A DNA stretch of 63,602 nt, counting the filler. It is 8 parts of 8 records of this genome, joined end to end, with 100 filler letters (N's around TTAATTAATTAA, not from the genome) between each part and the next. Parts side by side here need not be neighbours in the genome. Positions count along the whole stretch, not along the records: positions 58,558 to 63,602 come from SRR31156797_28204; 7 more parts are not named here. One strand, given 5' to 3'. The stretch's first letter is position 1, and every line of letters starts with the position of its first letter. Both the position numbers and the translations under genes were made by a program. Positions 59,919 through 63,602 of the stretch are shown in pieces. The notes under the pieces are model-generated. The model was not told where the DNA came from. It saw only the letters and a program-made list of their open reading frames with translations, and ran no database searches.

Positions 59919-60791
59919 TTATAAACCTGCAATAAATTCTTTAATTGCTTTTAACTGATCTTCATTTAGATTTTTATTTATTTTAACAGTTGTAGTTTTT
60001 TTGTTTGATTTAATTTCAAACATAGGTTTAATCTCATTTGCTTTTAATGCTTTTAATTCCTCTTCTAAATCTGAGGCAGGAAGATCTTGATAATCCTCTA
60101 AAATTTGAGAAACAGTTTTTTTGGTTCTTAAAATTTTTATTAATCTATTTAAAATCTCAGCTTTTTTAATTCCAACTTCATTTAGAACTTCAATTAACTC
60201 TTTATCATAGTTAACAGTAGCTTTTAGCCTCTTAGCATAGCCTGCACTGATACAATAATCATCAGCAATATCATCAAAACTTTTATTAAGTACAGTTGAA
60301 TCTTTATAAATTTTAAATGCTAATTCAGAGAGCTTAAGTTCTTCTCGGTGAAGATTTTCATGAATAGAAATTTTTTCTAAATCCTCTTTTTCAATTGCTT
60401 CAGGAAGAATTACTGCTTGTCCTTCAAATTCATAATTATCATAGTTATCAAAACCGTTTTTTATAGCTGCGGATCTTCTAAATCCACTTAAAATTCTGTA
60501 CTTCCCATCTTCTCTCACTTGTAAATACACCGGGTTGATTAATCCAGTGAAGAAAATACTCTCAGTTAATTCTTCAAGTTTTGGATCTGCAAGAAGTTCC
60601 TCTAATTCAATAGACCTGTTAATAAACTTTCTATCACCGAAATCAATCAACTTTAAAACCTCTTCGGTGTAGTTAGTTAATTTTGAATTTGGGATAATAA
60701 GTTTAAGATTATCATTTCCACTGTTTTTTAATTTATCAAAATCAGGAAGAGAATCAAAAGGATTATGAGAAATAATATCGTCTTTGTTCAT
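59919..60791 (-). CDS. parB: Divergent ParB/RepB/Spo0J-family protein
   Basis: GLINPVYL..YRILSGFRR CTP motif, ENLHREEL, HTH. Confidence 0.85.
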   Translation of the reverse strand: MNKDDIISHNPFDSLPDFDKLKNSGNDNLKLIIPNSKLTNYTEEVLKLIDFGDRKFINRSIELEELLADPKLEELTESIFFTGLINPVYLQVREDGKYRILSGFRRSAAIKNGFDNYDNYEFEGQAVILPEAIEKEDLEKISIHENLHREELKLSELAFKIYKDSTVLNKSFDDIADDYCISAGYAKRLKATVNYDKELIEVLNEVGIKKAEILNRLIKILRTKKTVSQILEDYQDLPASDLEEELKALKANEIKPMFEIKSNKKTTTVKINKNLNEDQLKAIKEFIAGL

Positions 60792-61721
60792 CTAGATCTC
60801 CTCTCTTTCAATTATTTCTTTTACTAATTCTTTATAGTCTGTTGCACCATTTGATTTTGGTGCGTACTCAAATACAGTTAAACCTTTAGAAGGAGCTTCT
60901 GCTAATTTAACATTTTCTCTAATAATAGATTTAAGAACTGTATCTGCGAAGTATTCCTCAATTTTCTTCTTTACTTCTTTATCTAAATTTCTTCTACCAT
61001 CATACATTGTGCAGAATACACCACCAAGTTTTAGATCTTTATTTGTTAATCTATTTTTAGCCATGTCTATAGTTTGCATAAGTTGAGCTACACCCTCCAT
61101 AGCAAAATACTCTGTTTGGATAGGGACATATACTCTGTTAGCAAATGTAAGGGCATTAAGAGTTAATTTTGTAAGATTTGGACCACAGTCAATTAATACA
61201 TAATCATATTCACTTAAATCTTCACCTTCAACTCTACTTCTTAATAAAAATTCCTTACCGGGAACATCTAAGTACTCAAAACCTGCAAGAGATAGAGTTG
61301 CCGGAATAAGGTGCATTCCCTTAACTTCCTCAATACAATCTTCAAGTTTAGTATCACCCTTTAATAATTCGTAAACAGTAGGTTTTTTAGTATCATAGAC
61401 TCCAAGACCTTTTGTAAGATTTCCTTGTGAATCCATATCTATTAATAAGACTTTTTTACCAAGATTACTAAGTTCAGCTCCAATATTTACAACAGAAGTA
61501 GTTTTAGCAACTCCTCCCTTTTGATTGAAGAAAACAATTTTTTTAACTTGTTTTTTTTGTTTACGTAAATATTCTTCTAATGCATGATCAATAAGTTCAG
61601 ATTCGCTTTCAGAATTTTGTTCCTTCAATTTTTTTAGAAGGTTTTCCTTTTCAGTATCAATGCTGATATTTTTTCTGATTTTTTTCTTTTTGTCGAGCGT
61701 TTTTTTGCCTTTTTCTGCCAT
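60792..61721 (-). CDS. parA: ParA/Soj ATPase with N-terminal ribbon-helix-helix-like extension
   Basis: NQKGGVAKTT, DMDSQGN, IDCGP, RENVKLAEAPS; N-terminal RKNISIDTE...SESELIDHALEEYL. Confidence 0.92.
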   Translation of the reverse strand: MAEKGKKTLDKKKKIRKNISIDTEKENLLKKLKEQNSESESELIDHALEEYLRKQKKQVKKIVFFNQKGGVAKTTSVVNIGAELSNLGKKVLLIDMDSQGNLTKGLGVYDTKKPTVYELLKGDTKLEDCIEEVKGMHLIPATLSLAGFEYLDVPGKEFLLRSRVEGEDLSEYDYVLIDCGPNLTKLTLNALTFANRVYVPIQTEYFAMEGVAQLMQTIDMAKNRLTNKDLKLGGVFCTMYDGRRNLDKEVKKKIEEYFADTVLKSIIRENVKLAEAPSKGLTVFEYAPKSNGATDYKELVKEIIEREEI

Positions 61722-62089
61722 TATTTTTTAACCTCCAGGATAGATTAGTCTATCTAAGAGCTTTGCATGACGGTCAAATATCAATAAAAAATTAGTCAAG
61801 TAAAGCTCAAATGTAGTATTTTTTTATAAAAGTACCAACGATGTTAAATTATATCTAATTCAAAAATTTAGCAATAAATTTGCACATCTTAATTTGAGTT
61901 TACTATATCTGTACATTATTGTCAATGAAAAACCAAGCTGTAAAAAAGTTAAAAACAATGTTTTTACATAATAAATCTCATTCATAATTGAAATTTTTAC
62001 TAAATATGATATAATCAAAATATACCAGATAATTTTTATGTAGAATTATTTGGAAGATTTTTATTTTGAATTTTGGAGATGAAAATTGA

Positions 62090-62548
62090 ATGTGGTTTGA
62101 AGTAAGAGATGCAATAGAGGCTGATATTCCAGAAATTTATAAACATATTCATGAAAGATTTATGCAAAAATATACAGATATAAATAATGATGAAGCTTTT
62201 AATAAACATTATGATTGGTATAAAGAGGCTTTTCGATCTGATGAACATAAAGTCCATATAATATATAATCAAAATGATAAATTTATAGGACAGGTAAGAT
62301 ATGAGATAAACAAAACTAAAGCTCGTATTGGAATATATCTGATAGAGGAAGCAAGAGGAAAAGGAATAGCAAAAAAAGCTCTTGAAAAAAGTATAAGTAT
62401 GCTGACGAAAGAGAATAAAAAAATCAAAATAATAATAGCCAATATAATGGATGAAAATGATAAATCAATTAAGCTTTTTGAAGAGTGTGGATTTAAATAC
62501 TCGAAAACAAATATAGATATGTTAAAGTACATAAGAAAAATAAGCTAG
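62090..62548 (+). CDS. GNAT-family N-acetyltransferase
   Basis: FIGQVRY, EARGKGIA, NDKSIKLFEECGF. Confidence 0.88.
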   Translation: MWFEVRDAIEADIPEIYKHIHERFMQKYTDINNDEAFNKHYDWYKEAFRSDEHKVHIIYNQNDKFIGQVRYEINKTKARIGIYLIEEARGKGIAKKALEKSISMLTKENKKIKIIIANIMDENDKSIKLFEECGFKYSKTNIDMLKYIRKIS

Positions 62549-62570
62549 AAAAATCAAGTCCTATCTTTGC

Positions 62571-62599
62571 TTGTTTAATGAGTTTAATTATGATATAAT
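62571..62599 (+). promoter_or_regulatory. Sigma70 promoter of the tyrS leader
   Basis: TTGTTT-17 nt-TATAAT with extended -10 (TGaTATAAT). Confidence 0.75.
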
Positions 62600-62639
62600 T
62601 AATTCAGTAAGACAATTATTATTGATATTGGAGAATGAA

Positions 62640-62693
62640 ATGAAAAAAATAATCGCAGAAACTAATAACTATTATTACTACTATTATATATAG
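62640..62693 (+). CDS. Tyr-rich leader peptide MKKIIAETNNYYYYYYI (not in ORF track)
   Basis: GGAG at 62630-62633, ATG 62640, TAT TAT TAC TAC TAT TAT at 62670-62687, TAG 62691-62693; upstream of tyrS. Confidence 0.85.
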   Translation: MKKIIAETNNYYYYYYI

Positions 62694-62801
62694 GGTTTGT
62701 ATGAATTTGAATTATCTGTTTAGCAGAGAATAATTTGGATTGATGTAAGCCCTGTTTGTAGTGTAACAAAGTTTGAAGGGCTGCGAGAGAAAAGAGTATT
62801 T

Positions 62802-62836
62802 AACTCACAGCCAAGCGCTGTGAGTTTTTTTATTTT
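62802..62836 (+). terminator. Intrinsic terminator (attenuator) in the tyrS leader
   Basis: AACTCACAGC-caagc-GCTGTGAGTT then TTTTTATTTT. Confidence 0.88.
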
Positions 62837-63092
62837 AAAGCGAATTCTTTTTTAATAGCAATTGTAGTGCGAGAATCTTATGGTGATGATCGAAAAATAA
62901 ATTTATAAGTATTCTGTTGTGGAAGTTGGATAGTTAATTGAGTTTTTAGTTAAATATTTATTTGATGCAACGTAAGGTTGCCGCAGCTTGCCGCGAAGGC
63001 AAGATTTAATGTTTTGTGAATTAGTAATCTAAAATAAGAATAAAAAATAATATAGAGATAAGCTGTGGAAACAGCAAATGAAAGGGGAAAAA

Positions 63093-63602
63093 ATGAGCGA
63101 AAACGTGAATATGAACGTTGAACAAGAAGTAGAAAGACAGTTTAATATCCTTATGAGAGGTGTAGAGGATTTAGTATCTGAAGAAGAGTTTAAAAAGAAA
63201 CTTAAAAAATCTATCGAAACAAATACACCATTAAATGTAAAATTAGGTGTAGATCCTACAGGAAGTGAGCTTCATATCGGACATGCAGTTCAACTTAGAA
63301 AATTAAAAGCATTCCAAGAATTAGGACACAATGTAAAATTCCTAATTGGAACTTTTACTGCTAAAATCGGAGATCCTACCGGTAAATCTGAAACTAGAAA
63401 AATGTTATCTGATGAAGATATAGCTGAAAACGTAAAAGGTTGGTTAGAGCAGGCACAAATTATACTTGATTTAGATAAAATTGAAGTTGTATATAATGGA
63501 GACTGGCTGGAAAAATTAAATCTTGAAGATGTACTTAAATTATTATCTCAATTTACTGTAGCACAAATGGTGCAAAGAGAAGATTTCGCTAACAGATTAA
63601 AA
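63093..63602 (+). CDS. tyrS: Tyrosine--tRNA ligase, running off the window
   Basis: Manual translation MSENVNMNVEQEVERQFNILMRG...VKLGVDPTGSELHIGH...FTAKIGDPTGKSETRK..VYNGDWL. Confidence 0.95.
   Translation, partial: MSENVNMNVEQEVERQFNILMRGVEDLVSEEEFKKKLKKSIETNTPLNVKLGVDPTGSELHIGHAVQLRKLKAFQELGHNVKFLIGTFTAKIGDPTGKSETRKMLSDEDIAENVKGWLEQAQIILDLDKIEVVYNGDWLEKLNLEDVLKLLSQFTVAQMVQREDFANRLK

Follow-up and report, generated by a model that had tools for sequence, protein, structure and literature searches.

A putative tyrosine-sensing leader-peptide attenuator upstream of tyrS and related leaders in Fusobacteriales

Results

Organisation of the tyrS leader region

The stretch of DNA analysed here (63,602 nt in all, hereafter the window) carries near its end the 5′ part of tyrS and, upstream on the same (+) strand, a promoter, a short ORF with a run of Tyr codons and an intrinsic terminator. 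Reading of the sequence places the leader promoter at 62571..62599, with TTGTTT at 62571-62576, a 17-nt spacer and the TG-extended −10 TGaTATAAT at 62591-62599; TGTGATATAAT, TGTGGTATAAT or TATGTTATAAT occupies the equivalent position 5′ of the leader ORF in relatives. This promoter is absent from the output of a consensus promoter scan because its −35 is weak. A Shine-Dalgarno sequence (SD; GGAGA at 62630..62634, in the arrangement GGAGA-N5-ATG) precedes the 17-codon leader ORF, MKKIIAETNNYYYYYYI (62640..62693), which starts with the ATG at 62640, not 62641, and ends with TAG at 62691-62693. Its six Tyr codons, TAT TAT TAC TAC TAT TAT (62670..62687), are the proposed sensing codons. Segments that can form four helices (A to D) follow, the last of these being the terminator and its T-run. 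The tyrS gene, identified by TIGR00234 (E 3.3e-48) and Pfam tRNA-synt_1b, occupies 63093..63602 and runs off the window; its likely start is the ATG at 63093, preceded by AAAGGGGA. The extended −10, ribosome-binding site, 17-codon Tyr ORF, helices A-D, U-run and tyrS that an earlier note on this DNA had described were thus all found where it had placed them.

A search of both strands of the 63.6-kb window for ORFs that jointly have an ATG, an SD, a length of 6-35 codons, a run of at least three identical residues and a terminator no more than 220 nt away yielded this single ORF. In a terminator scan of 62000-63602, three terminator-like sites were found against 0.3 expected.

Terminator and tyrS are separated by a spacer of ~250 nt (62832..63077) with a REP-like hairpin at 62964-62981 and a second hairpin at 62987-63003, on which the earlier note had not remarked. 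A shared GATGCAACGTNANGTTGC hairpin considered as a second tyrS-specific element was rejected, being a dispersed repeat. The long spacer of the window may hold a promoter or a second terminator; tyrS, an essential gene, requires basal expression. Its unusual length, the inserted repeat that it includes and the many weak −10-like sites that AT-rich spacers offer would suit an arrangement in which ORF and terminator form an independent small gene or sRNA and tyrS is transcribed from a promoter in the 250-nt spacer, with no amino-acid control. We consider this improbable: the consensus scan found no promoter-like site scoring ≥9/12 on the + strand in 62832-63092; in most relatives the long spacer is missing and the SD of tyrS follows the terminator by only ~25-60 nt; conservation of the peptide is limited to the Tyr run; and, as described below, the antiterminator shares sequence with the terminator, with which it covaries, and the residue run fits the downstream gene across many gene classes.

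Conservation of the Tyr-codon leader in related Fusobacteriales

The Tyr codons are conserved in relatives, as the earlier note's reading required. Upstream of tyrS in related Fusobacteriales we found 26 distinct leaders, in nine sequence groups, that keep a Tyr run (3-7 codons), SD and ATG, and a terminator. A Tyr-run ORF with SD and ATG stands 145-190 nt before tyrS in 10 of the 13 Fusobacteriota loci having upstream DNA, and such a leader was present in 19/29 further loci and then in 5/59 further regions; each of the 11 leaders listed for comparison has an SD before its ATG. Outside the Tyr run the peptides vary (MKKIIAETNN, MKFDDNQT, MNRKINYNR, MIVIARRT and others). The leader stands before two types of TyrS, the second being 35-40% identical (L168 and L169; also L226, L235 and L239), and the genomes with this second type, in which some family members lie, are probably those of Fusobacterium and relatives. 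In ~55 other Fusobacteriales regions tyrS has neither a Tyr leader nor a T-box, and a Phe-run leader was found before pheS in none of five relatives.

Search for T-boxes and known leader families

tyrS is a textbook T-box gene, and T-boxes are modelled on a Stem I with a specifier loop and on the conserved T-box sequence in the antiterminator. The T-box covariance model RF00230 gave no match at E≤10 in 61700-63602, in agreement with the earlier reading of a leader lacking T-box motifs, and gathering-level Rfam matches were nil both in 15 tyrS loci of relatives and in 10 further loci with Thr, Trp, His, Asn or aromatic leaders. Rfam also holds curated enterobacterial leader families (Thr_leader, Trp_leader, His_leader, Leu_leader and similar); none of these models matched in the window region, the 15 tyrS loci or the 10 other leader loci.

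Alternative helices between leader ORF and tyrS

All four helices that had been drawn by hand exist, with support from covariation for D, C and B and from shuffle controls for A. Helix D, the intrinsic terminator (62802..62831), consists of a stem at 62802-62826 and a T-run to 62831. RNAalifold analysis of 31 leaders gave it 10 pairs, of which nine show compensatory changes.

Helix C, the antiterminator (segments 3:4; 62779..62812), joins GGCTGCGAG at 62779-62787 to CTCACAGCC at 62804-62812 through 8/9 pairs, and in the window its energy (−14.2 kcal/mol) was equalled by 5/300 shuffles. In the alignment of Tyr, Thr and Trp leaders, 83.6% of its cells are paired, compared to 19-57% when the arms are slid, in a register six columns off that of the window's own helix. 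Covariation was 0.347 versus 0.220 in shuffles (0/500 as high), statistics that are inflated, as throughout our shuffle and non-cognate tests, since these ignore sequence relatedness. One pair swaps between GC (14) and AU (9). A cognate/non-cognate comparison also supports helix C, which uses the 5′ arm of the terminator, is mutually exclusive with D and covaries with it.

Helix B (segments 2:3; 62748..62782; −12.2 kcal/mol) pairs AGCCCT (62748-62753) with AGGGCT (62777-62782) and encloses a loop, 62757-62774, that is complementary to the Tyr codons. In the family-wide alignment A4, whose model contained D only, 79.9% of its cells are paired (26-48% when slid), covariation is 0.311 versus 0.217 in shuffles (0/500 as high) and both sides have changed in 10/11 pairs. 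The larger alignment A4 is the only one to lend this support: in A2, a plain MAFFT alignment in which the register of B shifts by one column between groups, 56% of cells are paired, no better than in shuffles. A trimmed alignment (A3), with segment 3 misaligned, was dropped.

Helix A (segments 1:2; 62691..62754, RNAfold) is a long hairpin whose 5′ arm opens with the leader stop codon. Its duplex in the window (−13.1 kcal/mol) was equalled by 1/300 shuffles, and in 59 of 84 family members no more than 5/200 shuffles were as good as the equivalent hairpin. Across lineages it begins 0-5 nt past the leader stop codon, a position that fits melting of A by a terminating ribosome. Alignment-free tests of A and B in 15-nt windows were underpowered and failed in groups d and i, the lineages whose hairpins have short loops, and the non-cognate A/B swaps failed because the segments are homologous between groups.

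Pairing of the leader ORF with the antiterminator strand

A fifth pairing (P0), missed in the earlier note, emerged from the comparison: lineage by lineage, the RNA of the leader ORF is complementary to the 5′ arm of the antiterminator. In the window the 5′ strand of P0 as given by RNAduplex and RNAfold (62652..62682) comprises codons 5-8 (TCGCAG/AAACT, 62653-62663) and the Tyr tract at 62667-62682, and would pair with 62757-62787 in the absence of a ribosome on the ORF. The two duplexes have energies of −10.3 and −6.8 kcal/mol (RNAduplex), and this pairing is weak in the window itself (z = −1.16; 40/300 shuffles pair equally well). In unmasked folds the ORF pairs with the loop between segments 2 and 3 and with segment 3 in every lineage. 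In pairing with its own leader, the N-part of the cognate ORF outperformed ORFs of other lineages in 12 of 15 representatives (0-1 of 12-14 equally good). Family-wide, the cognate duplex averages −17.9 kcal/mol compared to −11.3 kcal/mol, and in 55/85 leaders at most 5% of the ORFs of other classes pair equally well.

P0 bears on the version of the switch that uses helices A-D only, in which a stalled ribosome gives A+C (ON), a ribosome at the stop gives B+D (OFF) and an untranslated leader gives A+C and hence read-through. That these helices are real, that the position of A follows that of the stop codon, and that ORF-to-segment-3 complementarity in the window is matched by so many shuffles all agree with this version, which we nevertheless hold to be unlikely: most leaders have strong complementarity that is specific to their lineage, and in 11/11 leaders the unmasked folds, with P0, hold the terminator at a probability of 0.97-0.99. 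Since these folds leave the terminator intact, the untranslated state is predicted to be OFF, as in trp, and the untranslated leader is predicted to terminate, contrary to the read-through put forward in the earlier note.

Folding with ribosome masks

Two pairings, P0 and B, are candidates for an anti-antiterminator governed by ribosome position. Constrained folding with ribosome footprints was consistent with a ribosome-driven switch in some lineages only. When the A site was placed on the first Tyr codon, terminator probability was 0.09-0.16 in L002 and L019 and 0.47 in the window, and when it was placed on the last Tyr codon or on the stop the probability was 0.93-0.99; in L001, L003 and the L004 group, full-length RNA keeps a terminator probability of at least 0.9 under every mask. 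The masks thus switch the terminator in L002 and L019, do so partly in the window, and do not in other lineages. In transcripts lacking the 3′ arm of the terminator, the antiterminator was favoured with the ribosome stalled and at the stop alike (probability 0.83-0.94 in the window, L001, L002, L019 and L003), and termination with a ribosome at the stop would therefore rest on kinetics, with helix B forming before segment 4 is made. We give little weight to equilibrium mask folding, which leaves the stalled and stop states unseparated in most lineages.

A wider family of leaders with gene-matched codons

A covariance model (R1) seeded with 25 Tyr, 4 Thr and 2 Trp leaders has matches at E≤0.01 in 39 of 151 Fusobacteriales genomes. 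A short ORF ends at the start of the match in all 70 places examined of the 73 listed, and the leader stop lies 6-10 nt past the match start in 52/65 places found by script. The window (62710-62831; 55.3 bits, E 7e-6) matches by construction, being a seed sequence, and its match begins within hairpin A, which is unusually long here. Leaders outside the seed, of the His, aromatic, Asn and Pro kinds, match at E 1e-5 to 2e-3.

The residue run corresponds to the gene that follows: a Tyr run precedes tyrS (13/13), TTTT thrS (8/8), a Trp-rich peptide trpS (6/6, one with an in-frame TGA), HHHH(H) hisZ (6/6), HHHH(H)R the gene of a polar amino-acid ABC binding protein (23/23), NWYFYYYFR that of DAHP synthase (4/4), N9 asnA and PIPP putP.

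A Tyr leader was also seen before the gene of an agcS-family carrier. Matches to the pattern ACARNCCN{10,40}TGTATCT in five genomes were mostly noise (controls gave 1-6 matches per genome), and among them terminators occurred only at the known tyrS, thrS and trpS leaders; the pattern was discarded.

The range of codons also weighs on whether the leader is read by a factor in trans, for instance a tRNA, as T-boxes use, or an RNA-binding protein like TRAP, that binds the UAU/UAC repeats or the leader independently of translation. The Tyr tract is indeed a simple UAY repeat that pairs with a conserved loop; we found, however, no T-box or other Rfam family, SD, ATG, frame and stop position are conserved while the N-part of the peptide varies, and sister leaders carry in-frame His, Thr, Trp, Asn or Pro codons that match their genes. 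A single repeat-binding factor would not account for these different, gene-matched codons, and trans-acting readers of this kind as a whole appear highly improbable, the least likely of the alternatives weighed here.

Discussion

Taken with the comparison among relatives, the sequence of the locus contains a leader ORF, a Tyr run, helices A-D, P0 and a codon-gene match, and no recognisable T-box. We conclude that the element is very probably a Tyr-sensing leader-peptide attenuator. The fuller explanation, that of a ribosome-mediated transcription attenuator sensing Tyr-tRNA(Tyr) and controlling tyrS, we regard as likely, with slightly less assurance. Of the interpretation in the earlier note we retain the core, that tyrS is under a Tyr-codon leader-peptide attenuator and not a T-box, and give up read-through of the untranslated leader, proposed without P0.

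How ribosome position maps onto the folds, the kinetics and the response to tyrosine we infer as follows. The leader promoter would give a short transcript encoding a 17-residue peptide that ends in six Tyr codons, and six RNA segments would interact, segment 0 being the leader ORF and segments 1-5 lying downstream. With the ribosome absent or already released (state U), P0 would form around A, joining the ORF to segment 3 and the 2-3 loop and leaving segment 4 free to form terminator D (4:5), with tyrS OFF. When Tyr-tRNA is scarce (state S), a ribosome stalled in the Tyr run would cover the ORF and halt before hairpin A; A would hold segment 2, and the free segment 3 would pair with segment 4 (C), blocking D so that RNA polymerase continues into tyrS. 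When Tyr-tRNA is plentiful (state T), a ribosome at the stop codon would melt the base of A, and the freed segment 2 would capture segment 3 (B), allowing D to form, with tyrS again OFF. For this three-state detail, our confidence is evenly balanced.

The predicted behaviour resembles that of the trp and his attenuators, in which a stalled ribosome leads to the antiterminator, and a released ribosome or one at the stop to the terminator; termination in the untranslated leader is a further predicted likeness to trp, and the his attenuator also has several chained alternative helices. The regulatory codons of trp and his lie inside segment 1, whereas here the additional hairpin A stands between the codons and their partner, the OFF state at the stop would be indirect, through melting of A and release of segment 2, and the gene controlled is a synthetase gene instead of a biosynthetic operon.

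E. coli pheST is controlled by a leader-peptide attenuator (PMC1262725). The tyrS leader shares with pheST (pheM) a synthetase gene as its target, the run of cognate codons and the choice between terminator and antiterminator, and differs in amino acid, phylum and sequence, with no Rfam leader match. It also appears to differ from the pheM structure in that its regulatory codons lie just 5′ of a hairpin starting at the stop, and in having five alternative pairings (P0 and A-D).

The T-box of B. subtilis tyrS acts on the same gene, and the element described here would share with it both signal (too little charged tRNA-Tyr) and output (antitermination in the 5′ leader). T-boxes, however, work independently of translation, through direct binding of uncharged tRNA, and none was detected here or in the 15 related tyrS loci. 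The main text of one report gives no T-boxes for two Fusobacteria/Thermotogae genomes (PMC2494555).

Predicted uORF attenuators of other synthetase genes, according to the main texts of the sources, comprise the cysS uORFC-8-2 motif of Rhodobacterales (PMC8632094) and trpS and leuS in Streptomyces (PMC1262725). Like the present element, these are computational finds in which a leader ORF that carries cognate codons, and a terminator, precede a synthetase gene; they concern other amino acids and lineages, and those texts report none as a scaffold of multiple specificities. The literature searched, at the level of main text and including PMC4833913, PMC5314783 and PMC2965389, mentions neither a Tyr-leader attenuator on tyrS nor a Fusobacterial attenuator family; a prior computational report, should one exist, may most likely be found in Lopatovskaya et al. 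2010 (Mol Biol 44:128), cited in PMC4833913.

In the wider family the leader stop codon would come first, followed by hairpin A, then by segment 3, which includes the conserved motif GTCTGTATCT, and last by the terminator. It is about equally plausible as not that one ancestral scaffold of this kind spread through Fusobacteriales as a modular family resembling T-boxes and was retargeted by swapping the codon run and the ORF-pairing strand, with the terminating ribosome also acting as effector. The structural effector would then be a ribosome that terminates at a set distance from hairpin A, besides the stalled one, and the family would serve at least Tyr, Thr, Trp, His, aromatic, Asn and Pro genes, among them three synthetase genes, biosynthetic genes and transporter genes.

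The tyrosine signal that T-boxes sense would here apparently be read by the ribosome, in a phylum with few studies of gene regulation by amino acids. The family constitutes a natural specificity-swap series for the evolution of attenuators and for the coupling of ribosome position to RNA folding, and its scaffold is a candidate new Rfam family. Its leaders could also serve to annotate transporter specificity, as for the ABC binding proteins with His leaders, the agcS-family carrier with a Tyr leader and putP with a Pro leader.

A tyrosine-codon leader upstream of tyrS

The features that an earlier note had read in the tyrS upstream region were all present, displaced by at most 1 nt. On the + strand, a TG-extended -10 element (TGaTATAAT, 62591-62599) with TTGTTT 17 nt upstream is followed by a Shine-Dalgarno sequence (SD; GGAGA, 62630-34) and by a 17-codon leader ORF (MKKIIAETNNYYYYYYI; ATG at 62640, TAG at 62691-93), whose translation includes six Tyr codons, TAT TAT TAC TAC TAT TAT (62670-87). 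Five segments of the downstream RNA can pair as hairpin A (segments 1:2, 62691-62754), helix B (2:3, 62748-53 with 62777-82), helix C, the antiterminator (3:4, 62779-87 with 62804-12), and terminator D (4:5, stem 62802-26), behind which a T-run extends as far as 62831. The likely start of tyrS (TIGR00234, E 3e-48) is at 63093. The scan over 1.6 kb that identified D found three terminator-like sites (0.3 expected), and in a combined ORF/terminator scan of both strands (ATG and SD, 6-35 codons, at least three consecutive identical residues, terminator within 220 nt) the leader ORF was the sole match in the window. With Rfam models and a cutoff of E<=10, 61700-63602 yielded four weak matches, each far under its family's gathering score, with no T-box among them, as had been expected.

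A GNAT acetyltransferase gene (62090-62548, +) lies directly 5' of the leader promoter, and a similar acetyltransferase-like ORF ends, by eye, upstream of the leader in five related loci (L001, L002, L019, L003 and L013). Further upstream in the window are ParB-like and ParA-like genes (59919-61721, -).

Conservation of the leader in Fusobacteriales

In a species-representative genome collection, the closest TyrS relatives (70-85% identity) were from Fusobacteriaceae, Ilyobacter and Psychrilyobacter MAGs. Of 13 Fusobacteriota loci with upstream DNA (L012, which has none, is outside this count), 10 contain a short ORF ending in 4-7 Tyr codons, 145-190 nt 5' of tyrS; L005 (Streptobacillus), L008 and L010 lack one. 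When 187 Fusobacteriales genomes were searched for TyrS, 181 gave a match, and two TyrS types emerged, that of the window and another only 35-40% identical. Tyr leaders were present in 19 of the 29 best loci with upstream DNA and in 5 of 59 further usable regions, two of these five being SSYYYC leaders preceding the second TyrS type. The poly-Tyr ORFs that the earlier note proposed to seek in relatives thus amount, after removal of duplicates, to 26 distinct leaders in nine sequence groups. Recurring in the leaders shown for each group are a TGTGaTATAAT-like promoter, SD, ATG, Tyr run, a stop codon 0-5 nt 5' of the hairpin and a U-tailed terminator. The peptide N-terminal to the Tyr run is unconserved between groups, which argues against a functional peptide. 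Neither a T-box nor any other Rfam family was detected in 15 related tyrS loci.

Two other arrangements were noted. In L084 (- strand, leader at oriented 1346-1399) a shorter variant, MHRNYYYSYYYNKINKK, has six further codons past the Tyr codons and a terminator only ~75 nt away; the helix definitions did not fit it, and the alignments were made without it. Neither Tyr leader nor T-box precedes some 55 tyrS genes that encode the window's TyrS type (L100-L131, L134-L157), and in many of these loci the upstream gene seems to reach the tyrS start.

Most relatives have 25-60 nt between terminator and tyrS SD, compared to ~250 nt in the window (62832-63077); L086, L087, L132 and L133 carry similar insertions, of 150-215 nt. 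The window spacer carries a REP-like hairpin, GATGCAACGTAAGGTTGC (= GATGCAACGTnAnGTTGC), at 62964-81, the one copy in these 63.6 kb, which also precedes tyrS in L004 (2945-2962), L086 (2035-2052, -) and L087 (1444-1461), there with a T-run 3' of it, just before the SD. Counted on both strands, it has 56 copies in genome G123, 68 in G127, 8 in G004 and none in G002 and G006, and a reversed-pattern control gave none in all five. The hairpin is therefore a dispersed repeat that was inserted, and not part of the switch. A second spacer hairpin, at 62987-63003, was flagged as terminator-like by the scan. The window spacer may contain a weak promoter; no promoter-like site scoring at least 9/12 was found on its + strand.

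Covariation of the competing helices

Helices were assessed on two alignments, A2 (25 Tyr, 4 Thr and 2 Trp leaders, aligned with MAFFT) and A4 (92 family members aligned to a model containing only D), in tests that ignore sequence relatedness. On A2, compensatory changes occurred in 9 of the 10 pairs of D. For C, 83.6% of cells were paired on A2 versus 19-57% with the partner slid, and its covariation score was 0.347 versus 0.220 shuffled (0/500 as high, kinship ignored), with one pair split GC:14, AU:9; the window, like groups b and c, has its C in a register 6 columns off and counts as unpaired here. Without alignment, shuffles were as good as C in 5/300 cases for the window, 0-1/300 for L002 and L019, and 51/300 for L001. 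Helix B did not exceed shuffles on A2, in which the MAFFT register shifts by one column between groups. On A4, 79.9% of B cells were paired versus 26-48% when slid, the score was 0.311 versus 0.217 (0/500 shuffles as high, kinship ignored), and both sides had changed in 10 of 11 pairs (e.g. GC:32, AU:30). Since the loops of A vary, A was tested without alignment columns: for 59 of 84 members its two arms paired better than shuffled ones (at most 5/200 shuffles as good), and in the window 1/300 shuffles did as well. The four helices drawn by hand in the earlier note are thus borne out, B, C and D by covariation and A by shuffling. Together with the conservation of the leader and the lack of a T-box, they support the core reading that it had put forward, and we consider it very likely, from sequence, that the element is a Tyr-sensing leader-peptide attenuator of tyrS.

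A proposed three-state switch

Folding of the whole leader without a ribosome pointed to a fifth pairing, P0, which spans hairpin A and joins the ORF to RNA further downstream: leader codons 2-8 pair with segment 3 (the antiterminator 5' arm), and the Tyr tract pairs with the conserved loop that separates segments 2 and 3. The complementary sequences vary by lineage, being TCGCAG with CTGCGA in the window, TTATAGCTA with TGGCTGTGATA in L002 and L019, and GATGACAACC with GGTTGTATC in the L004 group; in L132 the duplex is of 21.6 kcal/mol. For 12 of 15 representatives, the leader was paired equally well by no more than 1 of the 12-14 ORFs that other groups supplied, and shuffle z-scores ranged from -1.2 (window, 40/300 as good) to -5.9. 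Among 85 members, with kinship ignored, duplexes with the cognate ORF averaged -17.9 kcal/mol versus -11.3 for other codon classes, and in 55 of them at most 5% of other-class ORFs matched the cognate duplex. P0 leaves the terminator predicted to form, with a terminator probability (Pterm) of 0.97-0.99 in all 11 unmasked folds, and so the untranslated leader should be OFF. P0, absent from the scheme in the earlier note, would therefore probably reverse the read-through predicted there for an untranslated leader, a prediction that is probably wrong.

In the proposed switch, P0, A and D would form when there is no ribosome or it has been released, and tyrS would be OFF. A ribosome that stalls near the beginning of the Tyr run would cover the short ORF without reaching A, the 7-10 codons before the run being about one ribosome footprint; A would then keep segment 2, segment 3 would pair with segment 4 (C) and the blocked terminator would leave tyrS ON. 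At the stop codon, the ribosome's leading edge would melt the G-C base of A, 0-5 nt past the stop, allowing segment 2 to capture segment 3 (B) and D to form, again OFF. In folds masked for the ribosome, placing the first Tyr codon in the A site gave a Pterm of 0.09-0.16 in L002 and L019 and of 0.47 in the window; when the last Tyr codon or the stop codon occupied the A site, Pterm in the same leaders was 0.93-0.99. The switch was hence reproduced in L002 and L019 and partly in the window, but not in other lineages, where the terminator was still favoured at equilibrium under the masks. In transcripts cut 5' of the terminator 3' arm, C outcompeted B even when the ribosome had reached the stop codon, and the stop-codon OFF state would therefore depend on synthesis order and kinetics. 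The helices and their conservation are observed; which fold each ribosome position would favour we infer from these models, and we give the three-state detail about even odds.

One scaffold with many codon runs

Among the genomes of five relatives, four have a TTTT leader before thrS and three a Trp-rich leader before trpS (one by eye, with a GTG start), and no Phe-run leader was found before pheS in any of them. The thrS and trpS leaders share the layout of the Tyr leaders: stop, GGGTTTGTA...TACAAACCC, TTTTGT, GGnTTGTATCT and terminator. R1, a covariance model built from A2 and hence from a seed without His, aromatic, Asn or Pro leaders, had matches at E<=0.01 in 39 of the 151 Fusobacteriales genomes sampled, and at most five in any one genome. 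All but three of the 73 listed places were examined (the exceptions being the known trpS and thrS leaders of G001 and one place in G178), and a short ORF ended at the start of the match in all 70. An SD-preceded ORF was found by script in 65, with the stop 6-10 nt past the match start in 52 of these, and the other five were taken from printed frames.

Downstream genes, named by NCBIfam, agree with the codon runs: Tyr runs precede tyrS (13/13), TTTT thrS (8/8), WIHWWF or YWWC trpS (6/6, one with an in-frame TGA), HHHH(H) hisZ (6/6), HHHH(H)R a polar amino-acid ABC binding protein (23/23, four by inspection only) and NWYFYYYFR DAHP synthase (4/4). TTTTIII precedes asd, 600 nt downstream, in two cases, and single cases are N9 before asnA, N7 before an ammonium transporter, QPIPPR before putP, SDYDHD before non-discriminating aspS, FCFFFYFR before a TrpX-like binding protein, FWWWP before a sodium-dependent transporter, AYYYYY before an agcS-family carrier and TWQSWYFED before a peptide ABC binding protein. 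No Rfam family matched in 10 loci with Thr, Trp, His, Asn or aromatic leaders. The codon-to-gene match is strong circumstantial evidence for reading these ORFs as amino-acid sensors, and suggests a single scaffold retargeted through codon swaps. It would also suggest that the ABC transporters behind the His leaders (~23 binding-protein genes; R1 loci within L216-L285) carry histidine.

Two loci deserve separate mention. In L244 (G010:C1:850311-850429) the leader has five Tyr codons (…NAYYYYYKNKDWC), and the agcS-family amino-acid carrier behind it may transport tyrosine and be controlled in a like manner. In the trpS leader of L256 (G102:C4:230632-230756), …NWIH TGA TGG TTT TAG, the in-frame TGA is at the position of a Trp codon in the sister leaders L248, L250 and L252 (WIHWWF), and may reflect either mutation or an error in sequencing.

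Relation to known attenuators

By analogy, the tyrS element would work like classical leader-peptide attenuators, the closest case being E. coli pheST/pheM, which also controls a synthetase. Two papers describe predicted leader attenuators on trpS and leuS in Streptomyces (PMC1262725) and on cysS in Rhodobacterales (PMC8632094). The element differs from a T-box, none being found at 61700-63602 or in the 15 tyrS loci, and matches none of the curated Rfam leader families. A full-text literature search, whose scope did not extend to the likeliest source, Lopatovskaya et al. (2010), turned up neither a tyrS attenuator with Tyr codons nor a description of any fusobacterial attenuator family. What appears to be new is the pair of amino acid and gene, the principle being already known. 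The architecture is unusual, with codons 5' of a stop-codon-anchored hairpin and five competing pairings. The conserved scaffold serves many codon specificities. Altogether, the family is well supported and apparently undescribed; unsurprising in its underlying principle, it represents a natural experiment in the retargeting of specificity.
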